This document shows, in pieces, positions 6,219 through 52,176 of a DNA stretch of 64,000 bases (the first letter of the stretch is position 1; each line of letters begins with the position of its first letter). The stretch is from an uncultured Candidatus Saccharibacteria bacterium (GTDB lineage: Bacteria > Patescibacteriota > WWE3 > 2-01-FULL-39-13), in the NCBI GenBank assembly GCA_965230915.1, contig OZ246395.1, forward strand, positions 792,935 to 856,934, in the 5' to 3' direction. A program made the translations under genes and the position numbers. Below the pieces are notes generated by a model. It saw nothing but the letters and a program-made list of their open reading frames with translations, was not told where the DNA came from and made no database searches.

Positions 6219-7720
6219 TTTTGCAAATAAGACTTATATTGGATCGCCTCTAATAAATGTTCGTTCTTAATTTCTTCTGAACTTTCTATATCAGCTATTG
6301 TTCTAGAAACTTTCAAAATTTTATGCACGCTTCGAGATGAATATTTTTTGTGCAACGTATTTAGCGTTTCAATCGCGTCTTTTTCTAGTGTGCAAACTAA
6401 TTTTATTTCCTCGATAGAAAGGTCAGCATTGTATTTAAATTCTTTATTTAGACTTTTGAATCTTGAGATTTGCTTGTCACGAAGTTTTGTAATTTTATTT
6501 TTAATATTTTGCGACGTCTCGTACAATTCGTTTTTGATTAATTCGCCAGCACTTACGGAATATATATTCAAAAAGATATCTATGCGATCCATAAGTGGAG
6601 TTTTCAATTTATCGAGATATTTTTTGATTTGTTGGTCTGAGCAAACACAATTCATATCAGGGTCACCATAATTTCCACAAGGACAGGGATTCGCACAAAT
6701 AACTAGCAAAAAATCACATGGCAAAGTAGTATTATATTTTTTGCCGAATATTTGAATTGTCTTATCTTCAACTGGTTTTCTTAAGGCATTTACCAATTGG
6801 TTATTAAATTCGGTAAACTCATCTATAAATAAAATTCCCTTATGAGCGAGCGTAATTTCGCCAAGTTTTAAGGGAGTCCCTCCACCCAAAAGCGAGCGGG
6901 CAGATATTGGGTGGTTTACAGTTCTGAAATTTGGAATAAGCGAAAATTTATTTTCTGTTAACGAACTTATCCTCATTACATCTAATAAATCATCCTTCAA
7001 TAGATTAGGAAGAATTGACTGCAAAGCTTGTGCAAGAATAGTCTTACCCGAACCAGCTGATCCGATTAAACAGATATTGTGACGTCCAGTCGCCGCAACT
7101 TCTAAAGCTCGCTTTGCGATTTGCTGGCCACTAATATTTTCAAACAAGGTTTTAAAATGAATTTTACTATTATAATTTTGCACCAGATTATGAAACCTAA
7201 AATTTCTAGTCTGCAAGGCCATAACTAAATCTTTAAGATTTTTGTATGACAGGATTTTTAGATCATCAATAAAACTAATGTCAGATAAATTAGATTCTGG
7301 AACGACAAAAATTTTTTTATTAGATTTTGCTTCAAGTGCTAAAAGAACCGATCCGGAAATTTTATTTATTTCGCCATTAAGTGACAGTTCTCCTGCAAAC
7401 AAAAAATCATTTAATTCGCTCTTAATTATGCCAGCTGCAGCTAAAATCCCAATGGCGACCGGAACGTCGTAAAGTGTACCGCGTTTAGAAATATCAGCAG
7501 GTGCTAAATTTACAACAATTTTTTTACTTGGGAAGTTAAATCCTGAATTCCTAATCGCCGATTTAATACGTTCTCGCGATTCGTTTATCTCTTTAGCAGG
7601 TAACCCGACAATCTCAAACTTAGGGAATCCCCTACTATCTATATTCACTTCTATATTTACCTTTGTTGTTTCAAAACCAGTTATAACCGCAGAATTAATA
7701 TTTTTGAACGACATATTCAA
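6215..7720 (-). CDS. comM: YifB/ComM family Mg-chelatase-like AAA+ ATPase
   Basis: 501 aa with an N-terminal Lon-like/ChlI domain, Walker A (GSAGSGKT), an ATPase core and a C-terminal Cys cluster. Strong family resemblance. Confidence 0.9.
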   Translation of the reverse strand: MNMSFKNINSAVITGFETTKVNIEVNIDSRGFPKFEIVGLPAKEINESRERIKSAIRNSGFNFPSKKIVVNLAPADISKRGTLYDVPVAIGILAAAGIIKSELNDFLFAGELSLNGEINKISGSVLLALEAKSNKKIFVVPESNLSDISFIDDLKILSYKNLKDLVMALQTRNFRFHNLVQNYNSKIHFKTLFENISGQQIAKRALEVAATGRHNICLIGSAGSGKTILAQALQSILPNLLKDDLLDVMRISSLTENKFSLIPNFRTVNHPISARSLLGGGTPLKLGEITLAHKGILFIDEFTEFNNQLVNALRKPVEDKTIQIFGKKYNTTLPCDFLLVICANPCPCGNYGDPDMNCVCSDQQIKKYLDKLKTPLMDRIDIFLNIYSVSAGELIKNELYETSQNIKNKITKLRDKQISRFKSLNKEFKYNADLSIEEIKLVCTLEKDAIETLNTLHKKYSSRSVHKILKVSRTIADIESSEEIKNEHLLEAIQYKSYLQN

Positions 7721-7770
7721 ATAATAAATCTACAAGATTAAATATTTATTAAATTTTAATTAAGGAATGA

Positions 7771-8754
7771 TTACAAATATTTAGCAACGTTGGCGTTATG
7801 TTGATCCAGTGTTTCAGCATAATGAGTTGTACCGTCTTTTCCTGTTATATAAAACCAATATGGGGTTTCTTCGTAGTTGATTACAGCCTGAATCGAATCA
7901 AGTGATGGATTACTTATAGGAGCTGGAGGCAATTCTTTATGAGAGTAAGTATTATATGGAGAATCAATATTCTGCAAGTCATTCCTAGTTACTGTAGGCC
8001 ACCAATCCGCTTCGGTGCCCTTTGCATATTGAACAGTTGCATCGGCTTGCATAGGCCAGCCATTTTGCCATCGTTTAACCAAAATTCCAGCAACTTTAGG
8101 TCGGTCTTTCTTAATATTCATTTCCCTTTCTAAAATTGATGCAATGATTATAGTTTGATCTAAAGTTAGCCCTCGTGATTGTGCTTTCGCAACTAAATCT
8201 GAAGTAACTCTTTTGTCAAAAGTATTTCGCATCCAGGACGCTAAATTATTAGCTGGATAATCTTCTTCGATAATATATGTGTCTGGGAACATGTAGCCTT
8301 CTTTCAGATAAGAACTTTTTGCAAATTCATCTGCAAATTCATCTCCGACCTGTTCGCGAAGATAATCAACGTATTCTTCTGTTCTCCATCCTTCAATAAA
8401 AGTTAGTTTAGTTTCGAATGTTCCATTTTGTAATTCGTCGACCAACTTTACTAAAGTCAGACTTTCATTTGGTATCCGATAGTATCCGGCTTGAATGCTT
8501 TTTTGCTTATTCAAGAATAAGTAGGCTTTTAAAATTAATGGGTTAGAAATAATACCTTCTTTTGTAAAGTAACTAGAAATTTCTTCAACACCCATCCCCC
8601 TTTCGATAGTTATGGTTAGTTGTTTTTCATCTTCACCTAAGGCAATCTGTTTGTGAATTTCACTGTTATAATAAGAGTATCCGATCAGTCCTGCAAAAAC
8701 TAAAATAGCAGCGACAATTGAGAAGATAATCAACAGTAATTTACCGAATTTCAT
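7771..8754 (-). CDS. mltG: Endolytic murein transglycosylase MltG (YceG-like)
   Basis: 327 aa with an N-terminal TM anchor and a YceG-like domain that includes an ASILEREM-type motif. Confidence 0.8.
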   Translation of the reverse strand: MKFGKLLLIIFSIVAAILVFAGLIGYSYYNSEIHKQIALGEDEKQLTITIERGMGVEEISSYFTKEGIISNPLILKAYLFLNKQKSIQAGYYRIPNESLTLVKLVDELQNGTFETKLTFIEGWRTEEYVDYLREQVGDEFADEFAKSSYLKEGYMFPDTYIIEEDYPANNLASWMRNTFDKRVTSDLVAKAQSRGLTLDQTIIIASILEREMNIKKDRPKVAGILVKRWQNGWPMQADATVQYAKGTEADWWPTVTRNDLQNIDSPYNTYSHKELPPAPISNPSLDSIQAVINYEETPYWFYITGKDGTTHYAETLDQHNANVAKYL

Positions 8755-12636: not shown

Positions 12637-12678
12637 AAAAAAAGGGCGGTGCAGGTTACCCTGCGACCACCCTTTTTG
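12637..12678. terminator. Bidirectional rho-independent terminator between convergent genes
   Basis: Stem GGGCGGTGCAGG / CCTGCGACCACCC with a ttac loop, flanked by an A-tract and a T-tract. Confidence 0.7.
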
Positions 12679-18650: not shown

Positions 18651-18753
18651 GAAGACGGCGAGAAGAAAGAAGAAGGGGTGTATTTTTTATAGTCGATGTG
18701 ACTGTAAAAAAGTGTCTATTTACACCTCCTTTCTCTTTTTCTCTGCCGTCTTC
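18651..18753. terminator. About 103-bp imperfect inverted repeat (32-nt arms) with a U-tract on the minus strand; terminator of gene A and the left edge of the high-GC block
   Basis: The arms GAAGACGGCGAGAAGAAAGAAGAAGGGGTGTA and TACACCTCCTTTCTCTTTTTCTCTGCCGTCTTC were read directly. Minus-strand CAGTTTTTCTT follows. Confidence 0.55.
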
Positions 18754-18771
18754 GAACGAACACAAACATGA

Positions 18772-19905
18772 CTACCTCACGACATCGGTTGTGGCGATTG
18801 CCAACACCTCGTTGCCGGAGATAACCGCGATGCGCACATGCACGACGTTGCATCCCATGGGGACGGAACAATTCGCGCCAGCGTTCGCTGCGGTTGGTTT
18901 GTTAAGGACTGTATCCCGATTGAGCATATTGCCCGTAACGTGAGACATTCCCGCCCAAATGGCCTGAGGGAGATATTCACCCCACCAGTACCGACCCCAA
19001 ACCGTAAACCCGCTGTCAACGTGTTGATCTTCATACGAAGACGTAACGTTGCCAACGTTAATGATCATGAGCGCGCAACCGTCGCCGGTGTCCTGCTCGC
19101 CGTCACCATCTGTGTCTTTGGTGCTACCAATACAAGTCCCTAACGGGGCGATGTTGTAGTCACCGGTGATGATACGGTAATGCTGCGCCGGAGTGACAAT
19201 GTCACACAACTCTTCCTGCTGGCAAAACGATGATTCGGCCATGCCGTATTCCAAACCTTGAGAGGCTGGGTACGTCAAGTTCGGGTTCACCACGTTGTCA
19301 ACATTCGGAAACTGCTTCCAGATCCCCAAATCCAGGTTATACCAAGGCCAGGCCTTGATATGCTCAGGAGCGAGGTTGGTGTAAGACACCGCCCATTGCC
19401 CTTGTGGCAAATTCGGTAAAACAACTGCTGCTTGCGCTGATGGCGATTGCGGCATCGACGCTTGGGTTAAACCTCCAACTGCTGCGGCACTTACTTCGCC
19501 TGTCGGGCTAGACAGATTAAAAGCATCTGTCGTAGGCACGGCGGCTACCGTCTGCGGCGTTGCTGTCGGAACCAAGATCACCTCGCTCGTAGGCGCGGCT
19601 GCAACTGCTTGCGCGGTTGCCGTTGGAACCAAAACTGGCGCTGCACCATTCGCTAGAGGAGCTTGTTGCGACACACTCGTCGGTGCACTGACTGACGGCA
19701 CTGATCCCCCAGGCTGGTTAGCCGGATTCACAATTGTCGTCGGCGTCGGCGCGACCTCAAGAGTCATAACGCTGCCAAGCTTGGCTTCGGGCTGGTTGGG
19801 CGCTGCTGTCTGGTTAATACTCCATATGGCAAGCCCTCCAATCACGAAGACCAAAATCCCTGTTAACACGATTGTTGCCAATCGGCGTTGCTCAGGTGTA
19901 CTCAT
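18772..19905 (-). CDS. Membrane-anchored exported protein with a Pro/Ala/Thr/Val-rich repeat linker and a Cys-containing C-terminal domain (DTDGDGEQDTGDGC calcium-binding-like motif)
   Basis: 377 aa, GC-rich. The terminal codons have GC-rich third positions. Confidence 0.5.
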   Translation of the reverse strand: MSTPEQRRLATIVLTGILVFVIGGLAIWSINQTAAPNQPEAKLGSVMTLEVAPTPTTIVNPANQPGGSVPSVSAPTSVSQQAPLANGAAPVLVPTATAQAVAAAPTSEVILVPTATPQTVAAVPTTDAFNLSSPTGEVSAAAVGGLTQASMPQSPSAQAAVVLPNLPQGQWAVSYTNLAPEHIKAWPWYNLDLGIWKQFPNVDNVVNPNLTYPASQGLEYGMAESSFCQQEELCDIVTPAQHYRIITGDYNIAPLGTCIGSTKDTDGDGEQDTGDGCALMIINVGNVTSSYEDQHVDSGFTVWGRYWWGEYLPQAIWAGMSHVTGNMLNRDTVLNKPTAANAGANCSVPMGCNVVHVRIAVISGNEVLAIATTDVVR

Positions 19906-19962
19906 TTGTACTTACCTTTCTAAGGGTCTCCCCTTCATACCACTCTCTCGATAAAAAACGGG

Positions 19963-20053
19963 TTAGTTCTTGATAATAGACACATCCAAAAAGCCTAAAT
20001 TAGCCCGATATGATAGGCCTATAAGCTTCCTCGATGTGTCCATCAAGAACTAA
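19963..20053. repeat. Composite hairpin (12-bp perfect outer stem plus an 8-bp inner stem) enclosing a GATATGATAGGCCTATA core
   Basis: 5' arm TTAGTTCTTGAT...GACACATC, 3' arm GATGTGTC...ATCAAGAACTAA. It lies 58 nt upstream of gene A's start. Confidence 0.45.
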
Positions 20054-20289
20054 TATTTTTGTTTGTGTTCGTCATATGAAATCTGCCTTTTCTCAAGAGC
20101 CGTAGCTAAGAGAGTAACAGCGTCATATTATTTGAAAGTGCTTCCTTAAAAGCTAATTTTAAGGAGCTTTAGGCCAACAAGTTAAACTTCTTGGCTCTTT
20201 AGGAATGCCCTTTTTAGACCTCCCGAAAGATGCTCGAATTATACTATAGGACTCGTAAATTGTCAATGGGGGCAAGGGTTTTCTAGCTT

Positions 20290-21594
20290 TTAGGACTTTA
20301 GCTTACCATTAATAGCAGTCATGGTATGTCGGCTATTGTGGCCAATTCCTTTGGCTTGAACCATCGATATTTTTTCGCCAGTAAAGGAGTCATTTGGCTG
20401 ATCTAAAGACATGGCTGTTGGGTAGCTATGTCCAGTTAAGCCAGGATTACTCCATACTGCAGACAGGGGTTGCGGATATTTTATAACAAGTTCACCTTCA
20501 CTCCAAGAGATTCCGTCAGCAGATTTAGAAGCGCAAACTCCTACGTTGGTTTGGAAGGTAGAAATAAACTCACCACGCTTAGTGTTGTAACTAATTCCCG
20601 GCAAGGCGGCATAACCTGCGCCAGGTATAGATGCGGGAGGAGTTATTACTGGCTGCAGATCTGGGGTTTCCCCGGGCTGCATAACTTTAAATCCATCTTT
20701 TGTGTAATGTTCTAATGCTCCAATCGTGTTTCCAATTAATGGCAACCTGGCCATGAAAATTTGATCAACAGTGTTAAATTTAGCTTTTGATTCTTGAGGA
20801 ATCCACTCGATGTAATAAAGCAAAATTTGTTCTTGGCCTGTATTTGAATCTTGAACTTTTATTGCGTGCGGCTGACCCGCTCCTGTAACTTCTCGACCTG
20901 GTTGTGAATGTTCACGTCCAGTAATTAATTGGCCCATCGGCTGGAATGTTTTTCCGTTTTGAGATTGGGCTAGACCAACTGAAGCAGTGAACCCAGCTCC
21001 GTTGCCAGGATTGATATGCTGCTCGTTGTGAGTAAAGCCAAGGTAGCCTCCATTAAACTCAACAACTGAAGTTACTGCACAATATCCGTTTCGATAAGTT
21101 TCGTTTGGATCTCTAGTAATTGCAGGTACAATTGCATTTTGTTCATTAGTTTCTGGTCTAAAACCTTTTTTTGAGTCCCATAGATATGGGAACGATCCTT
21201 GAATGCCAGACATAATTCCTGAAACAAACATGCGTTTTGTTTCGCCATCTTCTGCTGTTATAAATGGAACATGACCATCGGGGGTCCATTCCATTCCGGG
21301 CGTGGCTAGTGCGCGTTCACCGTGTTCAAATTCAAAAAAACTATTTTCGGGAAATTCCAATTCTGTTTCTTGTGCAAGAAATTGTTCGAAAGGTTGTTGT
21401 GGTTCAATCGCGACTTCGGCATCTTGCACAGCCGCTTCTGGTTGATTTTGAGATGACCCAAGCGTAGCTGCTGCCAACGTTGCAACAGCGGTTCTTCCGG
21501 CAAGTTTTAAGAAATCACGTCGTGAATAATTTGGCTCTGGATTTGGGTTTATGGTGTTTATCTGATTATTTTCGTTTTCGTTAGGTTCAACCAT
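20290..21594 (-). CDS. Tat-signal exported protein, paralog 1 of 2 (possible beta-propeller glycosidase-like, unverified)
   Basis: 434 aa with an RRDFLK twin-arginine motif. It is clearly paralogous to 21608..22870 (shared VSGI..G.QGS.PY.W, TGAGQP.AIKV and E..G..WS). Codon usage is native-like. Confidence 0.5.
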   Translation of the reverse strand: MVEPNENENNQINTINPNPEPNYSRRDFLKLAGRTAVATLAAATLGSSQNQPEAAVQDAEVAIEPQQPFEQFLAQETELEFPENSFFEFEHGERALATPGMEWTPDGHVPFITAEDGETKRMFVSGIMSGIQGSFPYLWDSKKGFRPETNEQNAIVPAITRDPNETYRNGYCAVTSVVEFNGGYLGFTHNEQHINPGNGAGFTASVGLAQSQNGKTFQPMGQLITGREHSQPGREVTGAGQPHAIKVQDSNTGQEQILLYYIEWIPQESKAKFNTVDQIFMARLPLIGNTIGALEHYTKDGFKVMQPGETPDLQPVITPPASIPGAGYAALPGISYNTKRGEFISTFQTNVGVCASKSADGISWSEGELVIKYPQPLSAVWSNPGLTGHSYPTAMSLDQPNDSFTGEKISMVQAKGIGHNSRHTMTAINGKLKS

Positions 21595-21607
21595 CTTAAG
21601 AATTATA

Positions 21608-22870
21608 CTAGCCTTTTGTTTTTAGTTTTAGAGCAACCATAGAATGTTGTCTGGCTTGGCCTATTCCGCGAGCCATAAGCATTGTTAAATTTTCACCGGT
21701 AAAATTATCATTAACCTTTGAAAAATCTACTAACGAAGGGTAGCTATAACTTGAGTTCGCAGGGTTTTGCCATACTTCTGAAAGTGGAACTGGATATTTG
21801 ATAATAAGTTCAGCTGAACTCCAATCAAGACCATTTTCAGATTCCGTAGCACAAACTCCAAGATCTGTTTCAAATATAGCTAAAAGTTTTTGACGTTTAG
21901 TGTTGAATGTAACTCCAGCTAAAGCTGAATAATTTGCATTCGCAAGATTTCTTGGATAAATTAAGACCGGCTTAAGATTAGGCATGGCTTTCGCATTTAT
22001 TGTGTTTTTAAATCCACTTTGTGTCCAGCTTTCAACTGCACCTAGTCCATTATTTTGTAATTCTAATTTCGTTAAGTAAATTTCATTTGGAGTAAATTGA
22101 TCTCTCGGGAGCCATTCAGTGTAATAAATATATGCATAGTTTTTGCCAGTATTACGATCTGTAACTTTAATTGCACAAGGCTGACCTGCCCCAGTAACCT
22201 GTCCACCTGGGTAAAGAGTTCGTCTACCTAAAATAGGTGACCCAGCTGCGCGCTCAAATGTTAAACCTCCATCTTTTGAAACGACAATACCAACCGATGC
22301 CCGAAAACCTGCGCCATTTTGAGAAGCCACCCATTCTTCGTCATGAGTAAATCCGAGCAAACCATAATTAGTTTTAATAACTGAAGTTAGCCCCGAATAT
22401 CCATTTCGATAATATTGAGTGTAATCTGATTGATTTCTAGACACACTTGGAGCAAAGCCATTCGGTCCGATATATCTATTAAGACCTTCTGATGGCGACC
22501 AAGTATATGGATAAGAACCTTGAACTCCATTAACAATTCCGGAAACCCACATTAATTTTGAGCCATCGCTTTGTGTAATAAATGGAATTCGCCCATCTGG
22601 GTACCATCCCATTTGTGGCAAATCGACACGGTATTCGGTTTGTTCAAAATCAAAGTAGCTGTTTTCTTGAAATTCTAATTGGGTTTCTTGTTGGGGATAA
22701 AGCTCAAATGGAAATTGAGTTATTTCTTCTTCGTATGACTGTTGCTTATCTAAACCAAATGGAGCAATTAAAGCTGCCCTATGGGACTGATCGGTTAAAG
22801 CTCGAAATGTGTGGCCTAGAAATTCTCGTCTTGATAATTTTATTTCGTTTAAATCGGGTAGTTCTTCCAT
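21608..22870 (-). CDS. Tat-signal exported protein, paralog 2 of 2
   Basis: 420 aa with an SRREFLG motif, colinear with 20290..21594. Confidence 0.5.
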   Translation of the reverse strand: MEELPDLNEIKLSRREFLGHTFRALTDQSHRAALIAPFGLDKQQSYEEEITQFPFELYPQQETQLEFQENSYFDFEQTEYRVDLPQMGWYPDGRIPFITQSDGSKLMWVSGIVNGVQGSYPYTWSPSEGLNRYIGPNGFAPSVSRNQSDYTQYYRNGYSGLTSVIKTNYGLLGFTHDEEWVASQNGAGFRASVGIVVSKDGGLTFERAAGSPILGRRTLYPGGQVTGAGQPCAIKVTDRNTGKNYAYIYYTEWLPRDQFTPNEIYLTKLELQNNGLGAVESWTQSGFKNTINAKAMPNLKPVLIYPRNLANANYSALAGVTFNTKRQKLLAIFETDLGVCATESENGLDWSSAELIIKYPVPLSEVWQNPANSSYSYPSLVDFSKVNDNFTGENLTMLMARGIGQARQHSMVALKLKTKG

Positions 22871-22954
22871 ATTTATGGTTTAGCAGGGTTTTATTTAGAA
22901 TTCTAATTTTAAGGTTTCGATTATTTTTGAAATCCAAATCTTAAAGATAGAATG

Positions 22955-23030
22955 CCCGGGCGGAGAAAGTTGAAAAAGTTTTGATATGCTAAAAAACGCA
23001 TGTCTAGTTTTTCCAAAATTCTCGCCCGGA
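22955..23030. terminator. Composite hairpin (CCCGGGCGGAGAA / TTCTCGCCCGG) enclosing GATATGCT-A6-CGCATGTC, 23 nt after the stop of the 23053 gene
   Basis: Seen in the sequence. The minus strand is U-rich after the stem. Confidence 0.45.
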
Positions 23031-23052
23031 CGGCATCTATGGTTGTACTACG

Positions 23053-23730
23053 TTATGGGTGAGGGATGACGACTATCGTCGAGATCACTTGGACGGATCC
23101 GTCTTGCAACGCAACCGTTGTCGTGATCGGGAAAGTCCCACCCTTCCAATCGAAATCGTGAGGCACGTAGCGATCGTTCGCCGCATAGTCAAACAAATAC
23201 GGATCTGATCCATCACCCCAATCAATCGAATGGCCTTGCAGAGCAACATCGTTCGTCTGAATGTGCAGGACAACCTGGTTATAGGTCGCACCAACAGTCG
23301 GCGTAACGGTGAAGCTGGGATACACTTCGTACGGCTCATCGACAACGATGTTAGATGTGCCGTTAGCGGTCATGGTGTAGTAGCGAACGCTGCCACAGCC
23401 CTTTTCACCCACACAACCGGTTGCCAACATCTTGTTGATCGCCGCCTTGATATTCGACTTCTGCAAGTCGTACGGAAGCCAGCTAAAGCCATAGGTTTTT
23501 TGACCAATGGTTGGCGCCGATGGGCAAGCAAGCACCTCGATAACCTGGCCCGTATTGGCGTCGTCATCTAGGGTCACAGTTTGAGCACCGTTCGCATAGG
23601 CACACGAAAGACTTACGTCTCCCGCGTAAAAATGCGAGGCGGTTTGCGCCTTGACGGGATAAGCCGAAAACAAGACTGCAACCAACGCAACGACTGCAAA
23701 ACCGAACTGCGAAATCAATTTGCGAAACAT
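23053..23730 (-). CDS. Secreted protein with a PKD-like C-terminal domain (WGDGS...HDFDW..G.F.ITTTV)
   Basis: 225 aa with a signal peptide. The region looks GC-rich (~50% by eye) and the 13 terminal codons have 8 G/C third positions. Confidence 0.5.
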   Translation of the reverse strand: MFRKLISQFGFAVVALVAVLFSAYPVKAQTASHFYAGDVSLSCAYANGAQTVTLDDDANTGQVIEVLACPSAPTIGQKTYGFSWLPYDLQKSNIKAAINKMLATGCVGEKGCGSVRYYTMTANGTSNIVVDEPYEVYPSFTVTPTVGATYNQVVLHIQTNDVALQGHSIDWGDGSDPYLFDYAANDRYVPHDFDWKGGTFPITTTVALQDGSVQVISTIVVIPHP

Positions 23731-23926
23731 TGTAGTAAATCCTCTCTTGAAATGGTTTTAGACAAAACAGTACTGCATAAAAACCTCCATATAATGAAGC
23801 TCTTAACGCAGACTGCTTTGACCCACTTAAAAAAGTATCCATAGATATTTAATGTGCGAATATCCAATGAACGATTTGCTCTTTGGATAGTTTAAATTTC
23901 CCTGATATACAGCGAAACTTGAACTA

Positions 23927-24000
23927 CTACCTCAGGATTGTTGTTTTTTCTTATGCTCGCGCATATGAGAAGCTTTAGGCTTCCAACAACCCTGAGGGTA
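23927..24000. terminator. Composite hairpin (CCTCAGGATTGTTG / CAACAACCCTGAGG) enclosing a TTATGCTCGCGCATATGAG inner palindrome and a GAAGC-TTTAG-GCTTC mini-hairpin
   Basis: 11 nt after the stop of gene 24009..25715. Seen in the sequence. Confidence 0.45.
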
Positions 24001-24008
24001 AACCATAT

Positions 24009-25715
24009 TTAGTTGTTAACTACAGCCAAAGGCAGAAAGACGTAGTCTTTCGGCTGATTGGGCTTGAAATTCGGATCGACAACCTGCAGCATAACGCCGC
24101 ATTGCACGTCTCCTGCGGGAGATGTGATTGTGATGTTTGGCGCGTAAGCGGCCTTGCCAGTGTTCGTATCCCACGAGTAATCATGCGTGACGACTCCGTA
24201 ATCAATGCTGCCATTGATGGTCTCGATACGATACGGATCGCCCTGTCCGAAGTTGAGATAATGACTCACTTTCGAACCCTGCATAAGCTGATAGGCGTTG
24301 GCCCATTCGAGCTTGAACTGGAACCGATTAAACGGGTCACCTTCAAGGTGGCGGGCTTCCAACTTGCAAGTCGGCTCAGGCAACTCTTCGTCCATAACGA
24401 CTGCGACTTCACAATTGCGACCCGTGGTCTCGGCGACGATAAACAGCGTCGAGGTATAAACCTTGCCAGGTTCATACGGGTAGGTAAATGTGAAGCTACC
24501 TGTGCCACTGATGGCCGAGGTGATCGTGATGAACTTTGGATCGATCATGCTCTGACCGGAATACAGACTGTGATAATCGGCATCGGGCGAAGCGCCATCC
24601 CAAGAGTAGTCGAAGCGATACGTGACCGGGTCGATCTTTTGGGAAGTCATCGTGCATGTCGCGGGGCTTTCGGTGTCGACGCTTACGACAACCGACTCAT
24701 TCGATTCAACCGGATAAGGGCTGAACCAACTACGCGAAAACACTGTTACTGTTTGGACATCCTGCTTGTTAATACGGAAAGAGACATTGCGTGTTCCAGG
24801 CGTACAAGACAAACCTGTGACCGGCGCGCTCATCGGTTGGGGCTGGCACTCTGATGGATAATCGCTGAATGGCATTCCGCCTGCTGTTATCAGCATTGAG
24901 TTTGCGCCTTCAGGGGCCATCACGGTGACATTGACCAAATCCATGTAGCGGTAAGAACCGGCTTGAACCTGAATGACTGGCTTCGGCACTCGGCACTTTG
25001 GCGCGAGAATGTCTTGCGTCCAAACCACTGTGTTCGTTGAGTCCGAAATCGTTAAGGTGGTTGTTACTAACCCCGTCTCGATAAAATAGGCCTCAACATA
25101 GTTGCCAAACATATTCCCTTCTTCGGGTCCGTCCAACTGCCACTGAAAAATGCCTTGGTGGTTGCCCGCCAGGCCGTTGCAATTGGTGTTGACGAAAGCC
25201 GTATACACGCCAGTGTCGCGAATCTGATATTCCCAGTCCCATTGTGTGGAACTGTTCTGGATCGGATTCACGCCGACGTAAAACGGGGGCCGCACGTCGA
25301 TAGTCACGGGGAAGGTGTAATCCAATCCACCGAAATTATCGTAGTTTAGCCCAGCCTGATATAACGTAAGACCCGCGCCGTAAGCATAGCCGTGAGTAAA
25401 CTGCGGGCTGTCGCCATCGGTGTTCAGATACACGTCAAAAAAGGCTCCATCGCCGAACTCAAAGTTGTGGTATCCAGCTTCAGGAATGGGAGGACAATCC
25501 AATTCCCAACGGAAAACGTTGGGTTCTTGAATGACCTCTTGGTTGTTCACGCATTCGACCCCAGCGGCCTTAGCCGCAAACGGAATGCAAAAAGCGCCAA
25601 ACAAACCTGCTGCAAAAACCAACATCTTGATCAAATTGCGATACATCAGAATCTCTCTTTCTTCATACATTGTTAACAAAATTGGCCGAGCTAAATCTTC
25701 AATATAAAGATCCAA
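24009..25715 (-). CDS. Secreted multi-domain protein with PKD-like repeats
   Basis: The true start is probably the internal Met near 25643 (MYRNLIKMLVFAAG..., a signal peptide preceded by AAAGAGAGA). Its C-terminal domain (CKLEARHLEGDPFN...FGQGD...THDYSWD) is homologous to the C-terminal domain of 27825..28937. Confidence 0.5.
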   Translation of the reverse strand: MDLYIEDLARPILLTMYEEREILMYRNLIKMLVFAAGLFGAFCIPFAAKAAGVECVNNQEVIQEPNVFRWELDCPPIPEAGYHNFEFGDGAFFDVYLNTDGDSPQFTHGYAYGAGLTLYQAGLNYDNFGGLDYTFPVTIDVRPPFYVGVNPIQNSSTQWDWEYQIRDTGVYTAFVNTNCNGLAGNHQGIFQWQLDGPEEGNMFGNYVEAYFIETGLVTTTLTISDSTNTVVWTQDILAPKCRVPKPVIQVQAGSYRYMDLVNVTVMAPEGANSMLITAGGMPFSDYPSECQPQPMSAPVTGLSCTPGTRNVSFRINKQDVQTVTVFSRSWFSPYPVESNESVVVSVDTESPATCTMTSQKIDPVTYRFDYSWDGASPDADYHSLYSGQSMIDPKFITITSAISGTGSFTFTYPYEPGKVYTSTLFIVAETTGRNCEVAVVMDEELPEPTCKLEARHLEGDPFNRFQFKLEWANAYQLMQGSKVSHYLNFGQGDPYRIETINGSIDYGVVTHDYSWDTNTGKAAYAPNITITSPAGDVQCGVMLQVVDPNFKPNQPKDYVFLPLAVVNN

Positions 25716-25875
25716 GTCTTATTTCGACCAATTTTAAATATGGTGCATGTCAAAAACTGAACGCTAGTTTCTGCAAAAGAAAATTTGTTCTAGTTTTCGA
25801 TCATTATTTAAATGTTCTTTTCTATTCAACTTTTATAGATCACCTGATTGTTAACCTGTAAAAATTGAAAAGCTT

Positions 25876-25948
25876 GTCCGGTGGAGTTGATTGTGTTTGA
25901 TATGCTTGCGCATAAAAGTCGAAAATCGACCAATCAACCCCTCCGGAC
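25876..25948. terminator. Long-stem terminator (18-bp arms GTCCGGTGGAGTTGATTG / CAATCAACCCCTCCGGAC) enclosing TTGATATGCTTGCGCATAAAAG and a GTCGA-AAA-TCGAC mini-hairpin
   Basis: 10 nt after the stop of 25962..27185. Minus-strand AAGCUUUUCAAUUUUU follows. Confidence 0.55.
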
Positions 25949-25961
25949 TGTGTGCATTTAG

Positions 25962-27185
25962 CTAGTTGCGCTTGAACGTTGCTCCATACGGGGCGTAAAT
26001 TAGCTGCCCTGTCGGAACTGCAACATTCAGGTCTCCACCATGGTGGAACTCGTTTTCGGTAAAGATCCCGTCGGCGCTGACATACAAGTCAGAATTCGAA
26101 AGAAGATTCTCATTCGTCTTGCATACCGTTCCGGCTGCCATGAACGGACCGCCAATGAAATCGGCACAGTTCAAAGGGTTCCCTTCGAAAGTGAAGATCA
26201 CGGCGGGGCCGGATTCTACCGCTGCTTGCGGAATGAACGTCTTTACCTTTGGCGCGGTTGGCGTCGCACTTGGTGTCGGCGTCGCGCTCGGGGCGGGAGT
26301 CTGCGTAGCAGGCTCATGCTCGATAACGAAGCTTGCACCATATGGCGCGTAAACCCAAACCGGACCTGAGAATTCTCCACCCTTCGAGTGAAATTCGTCT
26401 TCGAAGAAAATCTTGTCATCACTGACGTATACATCACTGTCAGTGCTGACTGTGACCCCTTCGGGAACGAAACAAACCTTACCAACCTCAAGCTGAGTCG
26501 AAACATACAAACGGCAATCGGAAGCGCCTTCCCCTTCGAACGTATAGATCGGAGTTGGCGTTGGCTCAACTGTGTTTGTAGGTTCAACCGTGCTGGTCGG
26601 TTCGACAGTCTGTGTGACGGTCGATGTCGGCTCGGGCGTCGTGCTCGGAGTAGCCGTAACAGTAACCGTTGCGGTCGCTGTCATTGTCGGAGACTCTGTC
26701 GGTACAGGCGTAGAACTCGGCGTCGGACTTTGTGTCGGGGTTTCTGTTACGGGAGGAATGTCAGTCGGTGTTACCGATGAAGTTGCTGTCGGCGTTGGCG
26801 TCGACTTGCGGTCATCAATAACAATCTGAAATGTATCCTCTAGAACAACATTCCCAGGCACCCAATCCAAACCAATGGTGTATGTAATTACCCCATTAGG
26901 CACGTAGGCGTATGCATGCTGAACGCTTGCATCACCTTCCGCATTGAATCGTAAATCCACCTTCTGACCGTCCCCAAAATATAACGTGCGGTAGTGGTCT
27001 TCTTCCTTTGTGGGGGTTGGGACCAAATTCGAACAATTAAAATTGAAGCGATACTGATTAGGTGGGACTTCCACCGGCTTTTGAACCTGACAGTCAGGGG
27101 TATTGTCCGCGGCGGATGCCGTGGCATAACCACCAAATACTGCAGATAAAACCAATGCGCTTGTAATCAAAGCCTTGCGTAACAT
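25962..27185 (-). CDS. Secreted protein with a PKD-like N-domain, a Thr/Pro-rich linker and two tandem ~80-aa C-terminal repeats
   Basis: 407 aa with a signal peptide and YFGDG...HAYAY. Internal repeat: IYTFEGEG...VYAPYGASF versus IFTFEGNP...IYAPYGATF. SD GAAGGAGAG. Confidence 0.55.
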   Translation of the reverse strand: MLRKALITSALVLSAVFGGYATASAADNTPDCQVQKPVEVPPNQYRFNFNCSNLVPTPTKEEDHYRTLYFGDGQKVDLRFNAEGDASVQHAYAYVPNGVITYTIGLDWVPGNVVLEDTFQIVIDDRKSTPTPTATSSVTPTDIPPVTETPTQSPTPSSTPVPTESPTMTATATVTVTATPSTTPEPTSTVTQTVEPTSTVEPTNTVEPTPTPIYTFEGEGASDCRLYVSTQLEVGKVCFVPEGVTVSTDSDVYVSDDKIFFEDEFHSKGGEFSGPVWVYAPYGASFVIEHEPATQTPAPSATPTPSATPTAPKVKTFIPQAAVESGPAVIFTFEGNPLNCADFIGGPFMAAGTVCKTNENLLSNSDLYVSADGIFTENEFHHGGDLNVAVPTGQLIYAPYGATFKRN

Positions 27186-27440
27186 GATTTCTCTCCTTCA
27201 TACGATAGGCCCAAGTCGGGCATAATACATAGATAACAAAATTAGCCAAATAGAGCCTTCGCCCCGTGGACATTTGGGGATAAAAATCAAAGGCTCAACA
27301 TGGCTAACTTTGCCGTGGAGAGAATGTAGCTAAATGCACGTATGACGTGTACTTGGAAAAAGAAATCCCGCGAAGGGAAATGATTTCGCTGTACTTTCAT
27401 ACTATATTAAGGAACTCTATCTCGGGTTAATTCCTTTGAT

Positions 27441-27550
27441 AGTTGAAGAGATTCCCATCCTGCCCAGTTGGAAATCTGCTTCAATCAGCAAACGAATCAA
27501 CGAATAGTTGAAGGGTTTCTCGTCCTGCCCAGTCGAGAAACCGCTTCAAG
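27441..27550. ncRNA. Tandem pair of hairpins with an identical 11-nt loop (TCCTGCCCAGT) and covarying stems; candidate structured RNA or leader element
   Basis: Hairpin 1 (27441-27485): AGTTGAAGAGATTCC...GGAAATCTGCTTCAAT. Hairpin 2 (27506-27550): AGTTGAAGGGTTTCTCG...CGAGAAACCGCTTCAAG. The outer helix is identical, the inner helix differs with compensatory changes, and both have a bulged G at the same position. Confidence 0.5.
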
Positions 27551-27685
27551 CATCCGTCGAACGAACTGCATATTATATATTAAAAAGGAGATTTTTGGCA
27601 GGAAACATTACTGCCTATAGTTAAAAGTTAGGCAAGTAAAGAGAGTGATTAACTCGGGATCCTGTCCATGTATCCCTTTCTTAAT

Positions 27686-27735
27686 CTGGCGATATTATAC
27701 AATTTTCAAACCCCAATGTCAATTGCTATAGGGTA
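27686..27735 (-). promoter_or_regulatory. Consensus promoter TTGACA-17-TATAAT on the minus strand, with an ATACCCTATAG motif directly upstream of the -35
   Basis: -35 at 27716-27721, -10 at 27693-27698, CTATAG at 27725-27730. Transcription from here would run through the tandem hairpins toward gene 25962..27185. Confidence 0.55.
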
Positions 27736-27753
27736 TTGGTAAGCCAAAAGAAA

Positions 27754-27812
27754 AGCCCGGGCTGTTTTTGATCTTTGAGATCTAGAAGCTTTTTGGCTTC
27801 AAACAGTCCGGG
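27754..27812. terminator. Terminator of gene 27825..28937 (stem GCCCGGGCTGTTTTTG / CAAACAGTCCGGGC with a large structured loop and a minus-strand U-tract)
   Basis: 15 nt after the stop codon. Seen in the sequence. Confidence 0.55.
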
Positions 27813-27824
27813 CTAAAACATAAG

Positions 27825-28937
27825 CTAGTTGCGAGAAACTACTCTGGGAACCCACAATTCGAGCTTAGGCCTGTTGGCGGGATGATTCGGGTCAACAATG
27901 TCGACGATTGCCGTACAAACCTTTGGCCCGAAGTCGGAATCGGATGGAACCGTTAATCTCGCCGTATACTGCGCTTTACCGGTTTCTACGTCCCAGGCAT
28001 ATTCGTGCCAAAGCGGCCCGAAATCGATAGCACCTTTGGGGCCGACGTGAAGGTTTTGATCTTCTCCTCCATCGCCGTAGTTAATGGTCGCCATATCAGT
28101 CGCGGCAAACCACGTAACCTGAAATTCCCAATAATTAAATGGAGCGCCTTCTGGATGCCGCGCTTCGAGTGTGCATTCAGGTTCATCACCAGGCTGCCCA
28201 CCCCACGACGGGTCAAGAACGGTAATCTGCTTTTGGCAAATTGCTGGGTCCTGCCCTTGCCGCCCAGGAACCACAACCGTTGCGGTATATACCGAATACC
28301 CACGGAAAACATCCCACGGATAATCGTGGTAGTACTCGCCCCATTCATAATCCGCATTTGGATAACGGATTCCCTCTGCCAGATTCGGACCAGGAGTGTC
28401 ATCTCCCAAATCAAGAAATGGGACACTCCCGTAGGCATTTGTCCAACCAATCTTAAAATCAAAGTGGTTGAACTTATCGCCCTCTCGAACTTCAAATTTG
28501 CAAGTTGGCTCACCGAACGACTTCTGGGTAGTGACTATGGCCTGGCAGGTCGCCGTTTCATTCTCGCCGTACACATACATAGTCGCCGTATAAAGCGTGT
28601 TTGTGATGTACGGGTACGTGTAAGTTACGACGCCGTTCCCAGAGACCCCTGGAACCTCGTACCACGGATAGTAGTCATAAGGGTTTCCAAAGTCGATCGA
28701 GTTGTTATTGTCGGCTTTACCCCCGCTCCACGTATAGGTAAACTGGAAGCGAAAATCCTGAACATCCTTAGCGACAAGCGTGCACTTCGTTTCACTCGCC
28801 CCTGTTGATTGGGCCGCAACATCGGGCTTTTGCACACTAGCATGACTCGGGACTTGGACACAGGCAACAAGCAAAAACAGATAGCCGATTGCTGTAAACA
28901 TGCTGAACAAAAATAACCTAGCAGCACGTCTCTTCAT
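27825..28937 (-). CDS. Secreted protein with tandem PKD-like domains
   Basis: 370 aa with a signal peptide. Motifs YGDGGEDQ...HEYAWDVETGKAQYTARLTV match the PKD consensus. Paralogous to 24009..25715. Confidence 0.55.
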   Translation of the reverse strand: MKRRAARLFLFSMFTAIGYLFLLVACVQVPSHASVQKPDVAAQSTGASETKCTLVAKDVQDFRFQFTYTWSGGKADNNNSIDFGNPYDYYPWYEVPGVSGNGVVTYTYPYITNTLYTATMYVYGENETATCQAIVTTQKSFGEPTCKFEVREGDKFNHFDFKIGWTNAYGSVPFLDLGDDTPGPNLAEGIRYPNADYEWGEYYHDYPWDVFRGYSVYTATVVVPGRQGQDPAICQKQITVLDPSWGGQPGDEPECTLEARHPEGAPFNYWEFQVTWFAATDMATINYGDGGEDQNLHVGPKGAIDFGPLWHEYAWDVETGKAQYTARLTVPSDSDFGPKVCTAIVDIVDPNHPANRPKLELWVPRVVSRN

Positions 28938-30539: not shown

Positions 30540-30590
30540 AAGCCGGGAGGCATTGAATCTATCAAGATACAATGTCGCCCGGCTTTTTTT
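30540..30590 (+). terminator. Rho-independent terminator (AGCCGGG...CCCGGCT plus a T7 run)
   Basis: Its T-tract overlaps the annotated recJ ATG at 30591, which suggests recJ actually starts at 30615. Confidence 0.5.
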
Positions 30591-35722: not shown

Positions 35723-35729
35723 TTTTTGA

Positions 35730-35784
35730 GCAAGGATTTTTTATGCGGTTAGCCATGCTGCTAACAAGCGTAAAAAATCCTTGC
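35730..35784. terminator. Nested bidirectional terminator (14-bp outer stem GCAAGGATTTTTTA/TAAAAAATCCTTGC enclosing a TTAGC/GCTAA inner hairpin)
   Basis: Between convergent aspS and the cupredoxin gene. Seen in the sequence. Confidence 0.6.
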
Positions 35785-35825
35785 GAAAACCCTGGCTAAC
35801 CACGCAAAAAACTTTGTTCAAAGAA

Positions 35826-40793: not shown

Positions 40794-40839
40794 GGGCCGG
40801 ACGCAACTTGTGAAAATTATAAAAAGTTGCGTCCGGCCC
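40794..40839 (-). terminator. Perfect 16-bp stem terminator (GGGCCGGACGCAACTT / AAGTTGCGTCCGGCCC)
   Basis: A U-rich run follows on the minus strand. It terminates transcripts coming from the 41.1-kb region. Confidence 0.7.
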
Positions 40840-45509: not shown

Positions 45510-45561
45510 GAGGTTTCGAATTAGCTTTTATTAATGAACTATTTGGCTAATTCGAAACCTC
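45510..45561. terminator. Perfect 16-bp bidirectional terminator (GAGGTTTCGAATTAGC / GCTAATTCGAAACCTC)
   Basis: Seen between convergent genes. Confidence 0.7.
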
Positions 45562-46707: not shown

Positions 46708-46794
46708 AAAGCTTGGGAACAGAAAGTGATCTGAAAAAATGGCGAAATAAATCTCGCGAAAATTTCAGGACTTTCTGTTCCCGTTATCAAACTT

Positions 46795-47583
46795 CTAGTC
46801 TGTGTTCTCCAGCGCCGGCAAGTACAACTTGGACTGCACGACTCGCGTGTAGCTGAAGTAACCTCCCATCGGGCTGTAGCTCTGTTCGAGCACGCGGATC
46901 GTAACTGTGTACAATCCATCATCCTCGAAAATCAAAAGCATCGGGTCGGTCGCCACACTGCCACCTACTGGAACCGTAACATCCTTCAAATCAAAATGGA
47001 TGTCATTATCGGCCCCCGGGGGGTCAACAGTAACGACGACTTCTTCGGTGAATGGCTTGGGTCCCTGATTTGTGAGCCAAACTTCAAAGGTCATGGCCTC
47101 GTTGGTGCGGTCGATCTCGTGAACCAAAAAAGGCGTAACGCCTTCTTTCTTAACCAAAGGAACCTCGCGCGCCAACAAGGTGGACTCACCTGCACGCAGG
47201 GTAAAACCTACGTAAACATCGTCCATAATAAACTCCGGATAAACCGTCGCCGTATATGCGCCGGTCGGGCACACAATACCCTGTTCATCCTTGGCGTCGT
47301 ACTGGCATTCCTCGGGCCAATCCAAAAAGGAAAGATCGGTCTGCAATACGATTGGGTCACCTGCATCGTTCCCGCCACTAAAGGCAATGACCGCGGGTTG
47401 CCCCTCGACCATGTAGGCCTTGCCGTTGGCAAGATTAATCGAAGATGGCCCAGGGCCTACAACTTGTGCAGCAACCCCCTTACACCAGCAGATATACAAA
47501 AATCCGCCGGCCAGAAAGGCAATTAGGACACAAGCTCGGATAAATCGGTAACGCATTTCCATCGTTCTCTCCTTCATACACAT
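46795..47583 (-). CDS. Secreted protein with very high GC3 (foreign codon usage), unknown function
   Basis: 262 aa with a signal peptide. The terminal codons almost all end in G or C. The minus-strand promoter CCTATAGTGTTGACT-18-TAATTAT is near 47650-47690. Confidence 0.5.
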   Translation of the reverse strand: MCMKERTMEMRYRFIRACVLIAFLAGGFLYICWCKGVAAQVVGPGPSSINLANGKAYMVEGQPAVIAFSGGNDAGDPIVLQTDLSFLDWPEECQYDAKDEQGIVCPTGAYTATVYPEFIMDDVYVGFTLRAGESTLLAREVPLVKKEGVTPFLVHEIDRTNEAMTFEVWLTNQGPKPFTEEVVVTVDPPGADNDIHFDLKDVTVPVGGSVATDPMLLIFEDDGLYTVTIRVLEQSYSPMGGYFSYTRVVQSKLYLPALENTD

Positions 47584-49938: not shown

Positions 49939-50039
49939 TATATAAATTATAACTGGAAAAATTTATTTAGGGAGTAAAAATTTGCTAGCAGGAAAACTGG
50001 ATAGAAAGAAACACTTTCCAGTTTTCCTGCTACTGCGGG

Positions 50040-51975: not shown

Positions 51976-51981
51976 AAGGAG

Positions 51982-52027
51982 AGGCAGGTAAGGTTTCTTT
52001 TTTTGGAAGAAATGATCTTACCTGCCT
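51982..52027 (+). terminator. Terminator AGGCAGGTAAG...CTTACCTGCCT
   Basis: Seen directly after the 50677 gene. Confidence 0.6.
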
Positions 52028-52176
52028 TTCTACATACGGGAATCATAACGGCTACCGATCGGAATCTGGCTTGTTGTAAAGCATCTTGGATCTCCTTTGC
52101 GTTAAAGGACCGAACGTTTGCGGCGATGTATGCGCGTACAAATCGGATTATACAAAAATAGGGATATAATGCAAAC

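Follow-up and report, generated by a model that had tools for sequence, protein, structure and literature searches.

What are the long hairpins that lie between the genes of an orphan-gene block in a Saccharibacteria genome: are they one family of elements, and what might they do? The window analyzed here, a 64,000-nucleotide (nt) stretch of contig OZ246395.1 from an uncultured Candidatus Saccharibacteria bacterium, carries five such hairpins, H1 to H5 (Table 1). All of the block genes are on the minus strand, where the order from 5' to 3' is g27825, H5, g25962, H4, g24009, H3, g23053, H2, g21608, g20290, H1, g18772 and a further hairpin at 18651–18753. We find that H3, H4 and H5 are a real small family of three-way-junction hairpins in the 3' untranslated regions (3'-UTRs) of lineage-specific surface-protein genes, that H2 is loosely related to them at most, and that H1 is a different element. 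To our knowledge almost nothing is known about the gene-expression signals of Saccharibacteria, which are tiny epibiotic bacteria, and a literature search on terminators or 3' motifs of Saccharibacteria or Patescibacteria found none.

A family of three-way-junction hairpins

The original prediction had placed all five hairpins in one family bounding the block genes, with an inner core common to H1 through H4 and with outer stems that all differed. The hairpins are real and do bound the block genes: when folded on the minus (coding) strand and compared with 200 dinucleotide shuffles each, all five were far more stable than their shuffled counterparts (z −4.9 to −10.4), and for every hairpin 0 of 200 shuffles reached the same stability. 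The family of five, however, held for only three of its members. A covariance model (R1) was built from H3 and its ortholog in the related locus L008 only, so that recovery of H4 and H5 would be non-circular, and was searched against 99 kb on both strands. Its best match was H4 (38.3 bits, E-value 6.3e-7), followed by H5 (37.8 bits, 8.5e-7) and the ortholog of H4 in a second related locus, L007 (22.2 bits, 0.006); after these came reverse-strand self-hits, and ordinary terminator hairpins appeared only at E-values of 0.07 or more. When the model was rebuilt from four members (R2), the score of the L007 ortholog rose to 32.2 bits, and no further member was found in the 64-kb window or, beyond the orthologous sites, in 13 related loci (~93 kb). 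H1 and H2 matched neither model (E ≤ 1).

The three-way junction is thus seen in H3, H4, H5, L007 6696–6767 and L008 1712–1778. In an alignment of these five sequences 95.8% of the cells are paired, versus 31–49% when the partners are slid by 1–3 columns, both partners have changed in 18 of 24 pairs, and none of 500 shuffles attained the observed values; with five sequences and an alignment fitted to the model, we regard these numbers as supportive rather than final. As had been noted, every outer stem is different; the stems also covary. The alignment was obtained iteratively with the covariance model, MAFFT alignments of the hairpins being structurally inconsistent; a sliding-window free-energy scan with a search for closed multibranch folds was too noisy, as GC-rich coding regions and random multibranch folds dominated its output.

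The shared fold of H3, H4 and H5 consists of a GC-clamped closing stem of 13–18 base pairs (bp), P1, two mini-hairpins of 4–5 bp, P2 and P3, which make the three-way junction, and an A-rich junction. P2 stacks directly on the 5' arm of P1 and is followed by a linker of 2–6 nt (2–3 nt in H3, H4 and H5) and then P3; the A-rich junction is 2 nt long in H5 and 7–10 nt in the other family members. In H3, P1 has 14 bp, P2 is GAAGC-CUAAA-GCUUC and P3 is UAUGC-GCGA-GCAUA with a GNRA loop, the junction is AGAAAAAA and the tail UAGUAGUUCAAGUUU. H4 has a P1 of 18 bp, GUCGA-UUU-UCGAC as P2 and UAUGC-GCAA-GCAUA, again GNRA-capped, as P3, with UCAAACA as its junction and AAGCUUUUCAAUUUUU as its tail. In H5 the arms of P1 are GCCCGGACUGUUU/AAACAGCCCGGGC, P2 is GAAGC-CAAAAA-GCUUC, P3 is GAUCU-CAA-AGAUC, and a U-tract directly follows the stem in the tail UUUUCUUUU. 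The ends of the palindromes read GUCCGG../..CCGGAC, GCCCGG../..CCGGGC and CCUCAGG../..CCUGAGG. The mini-hairpins predicted earlier are therefore present, two each in H3, H4 and H5 and one in H2, which has a two-segment outer stem around the single inner hairpin GACAUGC-N8-GCAUAUC. H1 is 91 nt long, and a run of U6 starts 3 nt past its stem.

This anatomy also accounts for what remained of the proposed core. The motif TATGC-NNNN-GCATA, which is the P3 hairpin, is exact in H3 and H4 and occurs nowhere else in the 64-kb window, where ~0.07 copies are expected from base composition. H2 possesses the core in part (ATGC..GCAT and the 10-mer GCATATCAAA, each in common with H4). The window contains this exact 10-mer, GCAUAUCAAA, three times, twice at the equivalent place inside a hairpin, which suggests a common origin of H2 and H4, although the observation was made post hoc. 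The resemblance of H1 to the core is limited to GATATG, which we treat as chance because the interior of this hairpin has not been conserved in the L007 ortholog. H5, which had been left out of the core, is instead a structural homolog of H3 and H4 whose second mini-hairpin has been altered by compensatory substitutions.

This branched form with its GNRA cap is unusual and has no counterpart in Rfam: no Rfam family matched at gathering thresholds anywhere in the window, and no relevant one at E ≤ 10 within 19800–28000. A hammerhead-like ribozyme was considered and rejected, since the junctions contain no hammerhead-type core sequences.

Position and strand of the hairpins

Four hairpins, and not the three first reported, start shortly after the stop codon of a minus-strand gene: H5 at 12 nt from g27825, H4 at 13 nt from g25962, H3 at 11 nt from g24009 and H2 at 21 nt from g23053. 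H1 is not one of them, as it lies 236 nt past the stop codon of g20290 and 57 nt ahead of the start of g18772. Several features are specific to the coding strand. Plus-strand folds exist too, and they are clearly weaker for H1 (−33.1 versus −46.9 kcal/mol on the minus strand), H3 (−30.1 versus −37.3 kcal/mol) and H4; across nine hairpins the coding strand was clearly more stable in five, about equal in three and clearly weaker in one. Where P3 has an AUGC stem its loop is GNRA in four of four cases (GCGA or GCAA, with GCAA in both orthologs), and this is so on the coding strand only. A simple terminator scan flagged none of the long hairpins.

Conservation in related loci

One relative is L007, a 16.7-kb stretch of a 32-kb Logan contig that is syntenic with the window and encodes, in order, RecJ, a 263-residue and a 256-residue protein, P0005, proteins of 230, 367 and 152 residues, a GT2 glycosyltransferase, and proteins of 1235 and 243 residues. 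Its housekeeping proteins are 58–80% identical to those of the window (66–71% at the DNA level), whereas the block coding sequences have no DNA match and their proteins are only 34–42% identical, the 230-residue ortholog of g23053 standing at 34%. The non-coding DNA nevertheless matches at 70–73% in four places: the g25962-type leader, H4 with ~70 nt beyond it, the leader preceding H1, and the hairpin that follows g18772. The ortholog of H4 lies at L007 6693–6782, that of H2 at ~7648–7722 and that of H1 at ~7990–8060, the last followed by U6, and all three carry compensatory changes. In L008, P0006 is 39% identical to g24009 and is followed at 1712–1778 by an ortholog of H3 with 90% identity over 68 nt.

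Each type of hairpin goes with a particular type of adjacent C-terminal domain. P0005 (L007 5083–6669) is a mosaic in which residues 1–322 resemble the N-terminus of g24009 (40%), residues 331–430 resemble the repeated Ig-like domain, and residues 451–528 resemble the C-terminus of g25962 (37%), which indicates domain shuffling inside the family. Its end is g25962-like and it carries an H4-type element, which fits co-inheritance of the 3' end of a gene with its hairpin.

Among the other relatives, Logan contig L006 is 100% identical to the window and hence uninformative, and RecJ-anchored synteny scans of genome and metagenome contigs returned only partial contigs without the block side. Orthologs of block proteins were found on four further contigs, two from JGI sample 3300050046, another from JGI and one from ENA. 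The JGI sample has orthologs of g27825, g23053, g21608 and g20290. On a contig of that sample, with the gene order unchanged, a 221-residue protein is followed, after a gap of 189 nt, by proteins of 417 and 427 residues, with counterparts of g21608 and g20290 43–60% identical to those of the window (20290–22870); the gap probably holds an ortholog of H2. In a more distant relative, L012 (10960–11060), and also in L011, L013 and L014, the gene of a distant homolog, P0010, is followed by a long composite hairpin with a U-rich tail (outer stem CCUGGUAAAG/CUUUACCAGG, inner stem UUGGC..GCCAA), and this hairpin does not match the three-way-junction model.

What the hairpins may do

We think it rather probable that the homologous hairpins H3, H4 and H5 act as structured 3'-UTR elements which terminate or stabilize the messages of three paralogous, separately terminated genes for Ig/FN3-like secreted proteins. 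Termination and stabilization themselves we infer from position, anatomy and what is established for intrinsic terminators and 3' stem-loop stabilizers. The position of the hairpins, their GC-clamped stem, the U-rich tails, the promoter that follows and the strand-specific features together argue for an element of the mRNA 3' end. H5 in particular has the look of a canonical intrinsic terminator, as had been proposed, its stem being followed by UUUUCUUUU. Moreover, long and stable hairpins are common after genes elsewhere in the window (near 12640 and at 18651–18753, 30540–30585, which is followed by U7, 35725–35790, 40794–40839, 45510–45561, 46715–46782, 49986–50032 and 51978–52031), so the block hairpins appear to be this genome's kind of gene-end signal; what distinguishes H3, H4 and H5 is their conserved branched apex. 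The hairpins are also kept where coding DNA diverges, as H3 is 90% identical next to proteins of 39% identity and the H4 region 73% next to proteins of ~40%.

Under this reading the mini-hairpins would fold first and draw the distant arms of P1 together, after which P1 and the U-rich tract behind it would halt RNA polymerase, most clearly at H5; at H3 and H4 the polymerase may merely pause, or termination may be partial. The structure, being very stable, would then block 3'-to-5' exonucleases, so that the upstream message is stabilized and insulated from the next transcription unit. The family likeness would be due to common descent, gene and terminator having been duplicated together, with selection on pairing letting the stems drift through compensatory change. 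H2 would likewise be a terminator hairpin, with a single inner stem, and H1 a separate terminator-like hairpin closing a conserved 5' leader.

Several observations weigh against the terminator and stabilizer interpretation. A canonical U-tract right after the stem is found only in H5, and the tails of H3 and H4 are only moderately U-rich, the 12 nt that follow the stem holding 5–6 U. Promoter prediction gave no strong candidate between H4 and g24009, H3 and g23053, or H2 and g21608, so these hairpins may sit inside a longer transcript. The conserved branched apex, the GNRA-capped P3 and the A-rich junction exceed what a plain terminator needs, which hints at another or an additional function. 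Finally, termination by H3, H4 and H5 is a prediction from their sequence, fold and position, and the covariation comes from five sequences aligned to the model.

The conserved apex and junction make recognition by a protein or RNase the main rival. The three-way junction might be a dedicated 3'-UTR cis-regulatory or processing signal to which termination is secondary. It could, for example, be bound by an RNA-binding protein specific to the lineage or by an RNase (such as RNase III acting on the P1–P2 coaxial stack), or give rise to a small RNA derived from the 3'-UTR, and it might act jointly with the long 5' leaders conserved in the genes concerned. The stem of P3, the GNRA loop and the A-rich junction are kept across paralogs and orthologs beyond the needs of a terminator, the family is limited to one gene family whose members also bear conserved, repeat-containing 5' leaders, and the U-tracts of H3 and H4 are weak. 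However, the sequence of P3 in H5 has been wholly replaced by compensatory change and is therefore not strictly required, and position, GC-clamped stem and U-rich tails fit terminators. Conservation is not peculiar to the block either: the ordinary terminator after g12694, outside it, is conserved between the window and L007, from which the terminators of this lineage seem constrained in general. We regard a dedicated regulatory signal as possible but doubtful. More speculative, and in our opinion unlikely, is that the 3' three-way junctions and the repeat-bearing 5' leaders, with their three UGGRCAGGA-loop hairpins, make up a dedicated post-transcriptional control module, an mRNA 'address' recognized by protein or RNA and held constant while hypervariable coding sequences rich in GC at third codon positions (GC3) diversify or are exchanged.

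A DNA-level role would make the hairpins recombination or cassette boundaries, attC-like or other folded single-strand sites, through which hypervariable coding modules are exchanged between conserved flanks. The array of orphan genes in one orientation, each with an imperfect palindrome of 60–90 nt conserved in structure and not in sequence, would suit such a role, as would the hypervariable and mosaic coding sequences (P0005 joins a g24009-like N-terminus to a g25962-like C-terminus), the conserved flanks, and a GC3 that is high in the coding sequences only. Yet Pfam and NCBIfam scans found no integrase or recombinase domain in or beside the block, the hairpin ends lack RYYYAAC/GTTRRRY core sites, and at least two block genes (g25962 and g18772) are each preceded by a consensus promoter and a long leader of their own. 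Only on the coding strand are the G-U pairs and GNRA loops present, and the hairpin type follows the adjacent C-terminal domain as in vertical co-inheritance. Recombination sites are therefore a very improbable explanation.

The weakest alternative, a mobile repeat of the repetitive extragenic palindromic (REP), bacterial interspersed mosaic element (BIME) or miniature inverted-repeat transposable element (MITE) kind inserted downstream of genes, draws on the extragenic palindromes at gene 3' ends, some with short strings in common, but is largely refuted and hardly credible: in 64 kb there are three members, all in the block after paralogs, with none beyond orthologous sites in ~93 kb of related loci, arm sequences differ completely, there are no terminal inverted repeats, target duplications or flanking direct repeats, and in diverged genomes the orthologous copies are found in the same places. 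The suggestion of a REP- or MITE-like element thus finds no copies to build on outside the block in the 64-kb window. No transposase was found among ~20 window proteins in a general Pfam scan, in which no search aimed at REP-associated tyrosine transposases (TnpA_REP) was made.

Base composition and origin of the hairpins

It had also been proposed that the hairpins were moved in with the genes. The block genes do differ in composition from their surroundings, with a GC3 of 0.52–0.59 for g18772, g23053, g24009, g25962 and g27825 against 0.22–0.31 for neighboring window genes; the values in L007 are 0.47–0.53 for the block genes and 0.20–0.29 for the others, and P0006 in L008 has 0.45. The intergenic regions with the hairpins, however, have a genome-like GC content of 0.35–0.41 (37% for the window overall), and syntenic hairpins are found in a relative whose housekeeping DNA is 66–71% identical. 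Given this composition and these syntenic positions, the hairpins did not arrive with foreign genes; they are native, long-resident parts of the locus. A recent horizontal transfer of hairpins together with genes was accordingly rejected.

The GC3-rich coding sequences for secreted proteins lie at 18772–19905, 23053–28937 and 46795–47583 in the window, at 5083–9198 in L007 and at 262–1695 in L008, all between flanks of normal GC, and this contrast is kept at the same locus in diverged relatives. The elevated GC3 is not due to recent transfer; it may possibly reflect recombination-driven GC-biased conversion or selection on mRNA.

The genes of the block and their proteins

The window is bacterial, as it encodes SecD, a Mg-chelatase-like protein, an AsnRS-type tRNA synthetase, RecJ and an ABC ATPase by Pfam; the 'hairpin rule' of giant viruses was rejected as an explanation on these grounds. 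The closest genome match of RecJ (77% identity) is to an uncultured Candidatus Saccharibacteria metagenome-assembled genome. No tRNA or transfer-messenger RNA genes were detected in the window. There are seven block genes in the window versus three in L007, and the seven block proteins gave no Pfam, NCBIfam or PDB-sequence match, except for a twin-arginine translocation (TAT) signal in g20290.

Table 1. Hairpins, promoters and principal block genes of the window. Free energies are for the minus strand, z is relative to 200 dinucleotide shuffles, and aa denotes amino acids.
Feature	Position	Strand	Free energy (kcal/mol)	z	Description
H1	19963..20053	-	-46.9	-10.4	
Promoter	20238..20266	-			TTGACA-17-TATAAT, 12/12; starts leader ending in H1
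H2	22954..23031	-	-37.0	-6.9	
g23053	23053..23730	-			225-aa secreted protein; H2 follows
H3	23930..23997	-	-37.3	-6.1	
g24009	24009..25715	-			568-aa open reading frame; H3 at its end
H4	25876..25948	-	-37.2	-7.6	
g25962	25962..27185	-			407-aa secreted protein, Thr/Pro-rich linkers; H4 at its end
Promoter	27694..27722	-			sigma-70-type, TTGACA-17-TATAAT, 12/12; 32 nt downstream of H5, starts ~500-nt leader of g25962
H5	27754..about 27812 (element listed to 27814)	-	-32.2	-4.9	
g27825	27825..28937	-			370-aa secreted/surface protein, three tandem Ig/FN3-like beta-sandwich domains; H5 at its end

The products of g24009, g25962 and g27825 are distant paralogs (29–32% identity), the paralogy of g25962 to g24009 being confined to its N-terminal 126 residues, and g20290 and g21608 are a tandem pair of paralogs (43–45% identity). 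The database protein P0001, which is the g24009 product, starts at 25646 and has 545 residues. An AlphaFold model of g27825 (predicted local distance difference test score, pLDDT, of 75) has an N-terminal helix followed by three beta-sandwich domains, and its Foldseek matches are tandem FnIII/Ig arrays; on the strength of this model, the three paralogs are predicted to be secreted or surface proteins with tandem Ig/FN3-like domains. The g24009 family is lineage-specific, with only nine relatives among 1.84 billion representatives in a full HMMER search; a word-based homolog search with g24009 recovered only the query itself, and exact look-ups of g27825 and P0001 gave no match. The C-terminal tails of g24009 (..FLPLAVVNN), g27825 (..WVPRVVSRN) and g46795 (..YLPALENTD) are alike and may be a sorting signal, and in L011 and L012 the homologous locus has a sortase gene nearby.

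Leaders and other hairpins of the locus

The two consensus promoters are shared with relatives: that at 27694–27722 is conserved in L008 (1894–1972, 82% identity) and present in L007 (4441–4469), and that at 20238–20266 is conserved in L007. The g25962 leader (27446–27576 and 27655–27680, minus strand) contains three hairpins with (A/C)UGG(G/A)CAGGA loops, two of which are tandem hairpins of ~17 bp framed by UUGAAG...CUUCAACUA. TGGRCAGGA occurs four times in the window versus 0.55 expected, three of the four in this leader, and P0005 (L007 4670–4790) and P0006 (L008 1–30 and 1950–1976) are preceded by conserved versions of the motif and of much of the leader. The pattern of GGA in the loop is reminiscent of CsrA-type sites, and there was no Rfam match.

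Between the promoter at 20266–20238 (12/12) and H1 with its U6, upstream of g18772, there is a structured leader, or an independent small RNA, of ~290 nt (19960–20231, minus strand). The H1 leader, stem and U-tract are conserved in L007 7755–8100, and the conserved elements of the ~290-nt leader (promoter, several hairpins, H1 and U-tract) fall at L007 7790–8075; the leader is not in Rfam, and judging from its sequence it may work as an attenuator or in the manner of a riboswitch, or else be a small RNA gene. The hairpin after g18772 (18651–18753, minus strand) is ~100 nt long with a free energy of −45 kcal/mol and is conserved at L007 9215–9320; its 5' arm holds a Shine-Dalgarno-like AAAGGAGGUGU, and the pyrimidine-rich arm with which this pairs is similar to the 3' end of 16S rRNA.

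A composite nested hairpin at 46715–46782 (−32 kcal/mol) lies between convergent genes including g46795, a secreted-protein gene with a GC3 of 0.60; its tail, AAGCUUUUUAAUUU, resembles that of H4, and the covariance model places the hairpin outside the three-way-junction family. Upstream of g23053 (23741–23856, minus strand) is a strand-specific hairpin with many G-U pairs, −39.3 kcal/mol on the minus versus −18.1 kcal/mol on the plus strand.

Comparison with known systems

At this locus fast-evolving, lineage-specific surface-protein genes keep their untranslated ends constant, with long structured leaders on the 5' side and a branched hairpin supported by covariation on the 3' side, while the coding sequences diverge beyond recognition at the DNA level. 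If the hairpin is only a terminator, it is a well-documented example of terminator form and evolution in this phylum and would be a usable part for engineering these organisms; should it do more, it becomes a candidate for a new cis-acting RNA motif tied to surface variation in host-dependent bacteria.

Like REP and BIME sequences, the hairpins are imperfect extragenic palindromes 3' of genes, but those are ~35 nt long, conserved in sequence and dispersed in many copies, whereas here there are three copies, all after paralogs, with arms that are not conserved. The attC sites of integrons (57–141 nt) are likewise imperfect palindromes after each open reading frame in co-oriented arrays of orphan genes and are conserved in structure over sequence; unlike them, the block lacks an integrase and R''/R' core sites, and at least two of its genes have their own promoter and leader. 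Moreover, attC sites use the single-stranded bottom strand of DNA, and the strand-specific features of the block hairpins point to mRNA. H3, H4 and H5 are comparable to Rfam families in being structured RNA with a covariation-supported three-way junction, and they match none of those families.

The nearest analogues in function are intrinsic terminators and 3' stem-loop stabilizers. As in intrinsic terminators, H2 to H5 are stable stem-loops 11–21 nt past a stop codon, on the coding strand, with free energies of −32 to −37 kcal/mol and z of −4.9 to −7.6; H5 adds the UUUUCUUUU tail and a promoter that follows, and other window genes end in long simple hairpins with U-tracts. What sets H3, H4 and H5 apart from intrinsic terminators is their size (59–73 nt), a branched three-way junction with two inner hairpins, the weak U-tracts of H3 and H4, and the conservation of structure and part of the sequence across paralogs and genomes with covariation, which is not typical of such terminators. 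Stem-loops that stabilize mRNA from its 3' side include the 'positive retroregulator' of Bacillus thuringiensis cry1Aa and the intercistronic REP hairpins of E. coli malE-malF. With these the block hairpins have in common a very stable hairpin, 3' of or between secreted-protein genes, that would be expected to block 3' exonucleases, and H3 and H4, after which no strong promoter is predicted, may likewise lie within a longer transcript. Compared by predicted fold, H3, H4 and H5 differ from both in being branched and in forming a small lineage-specific family, and not a single element or a genome-wide repeat.

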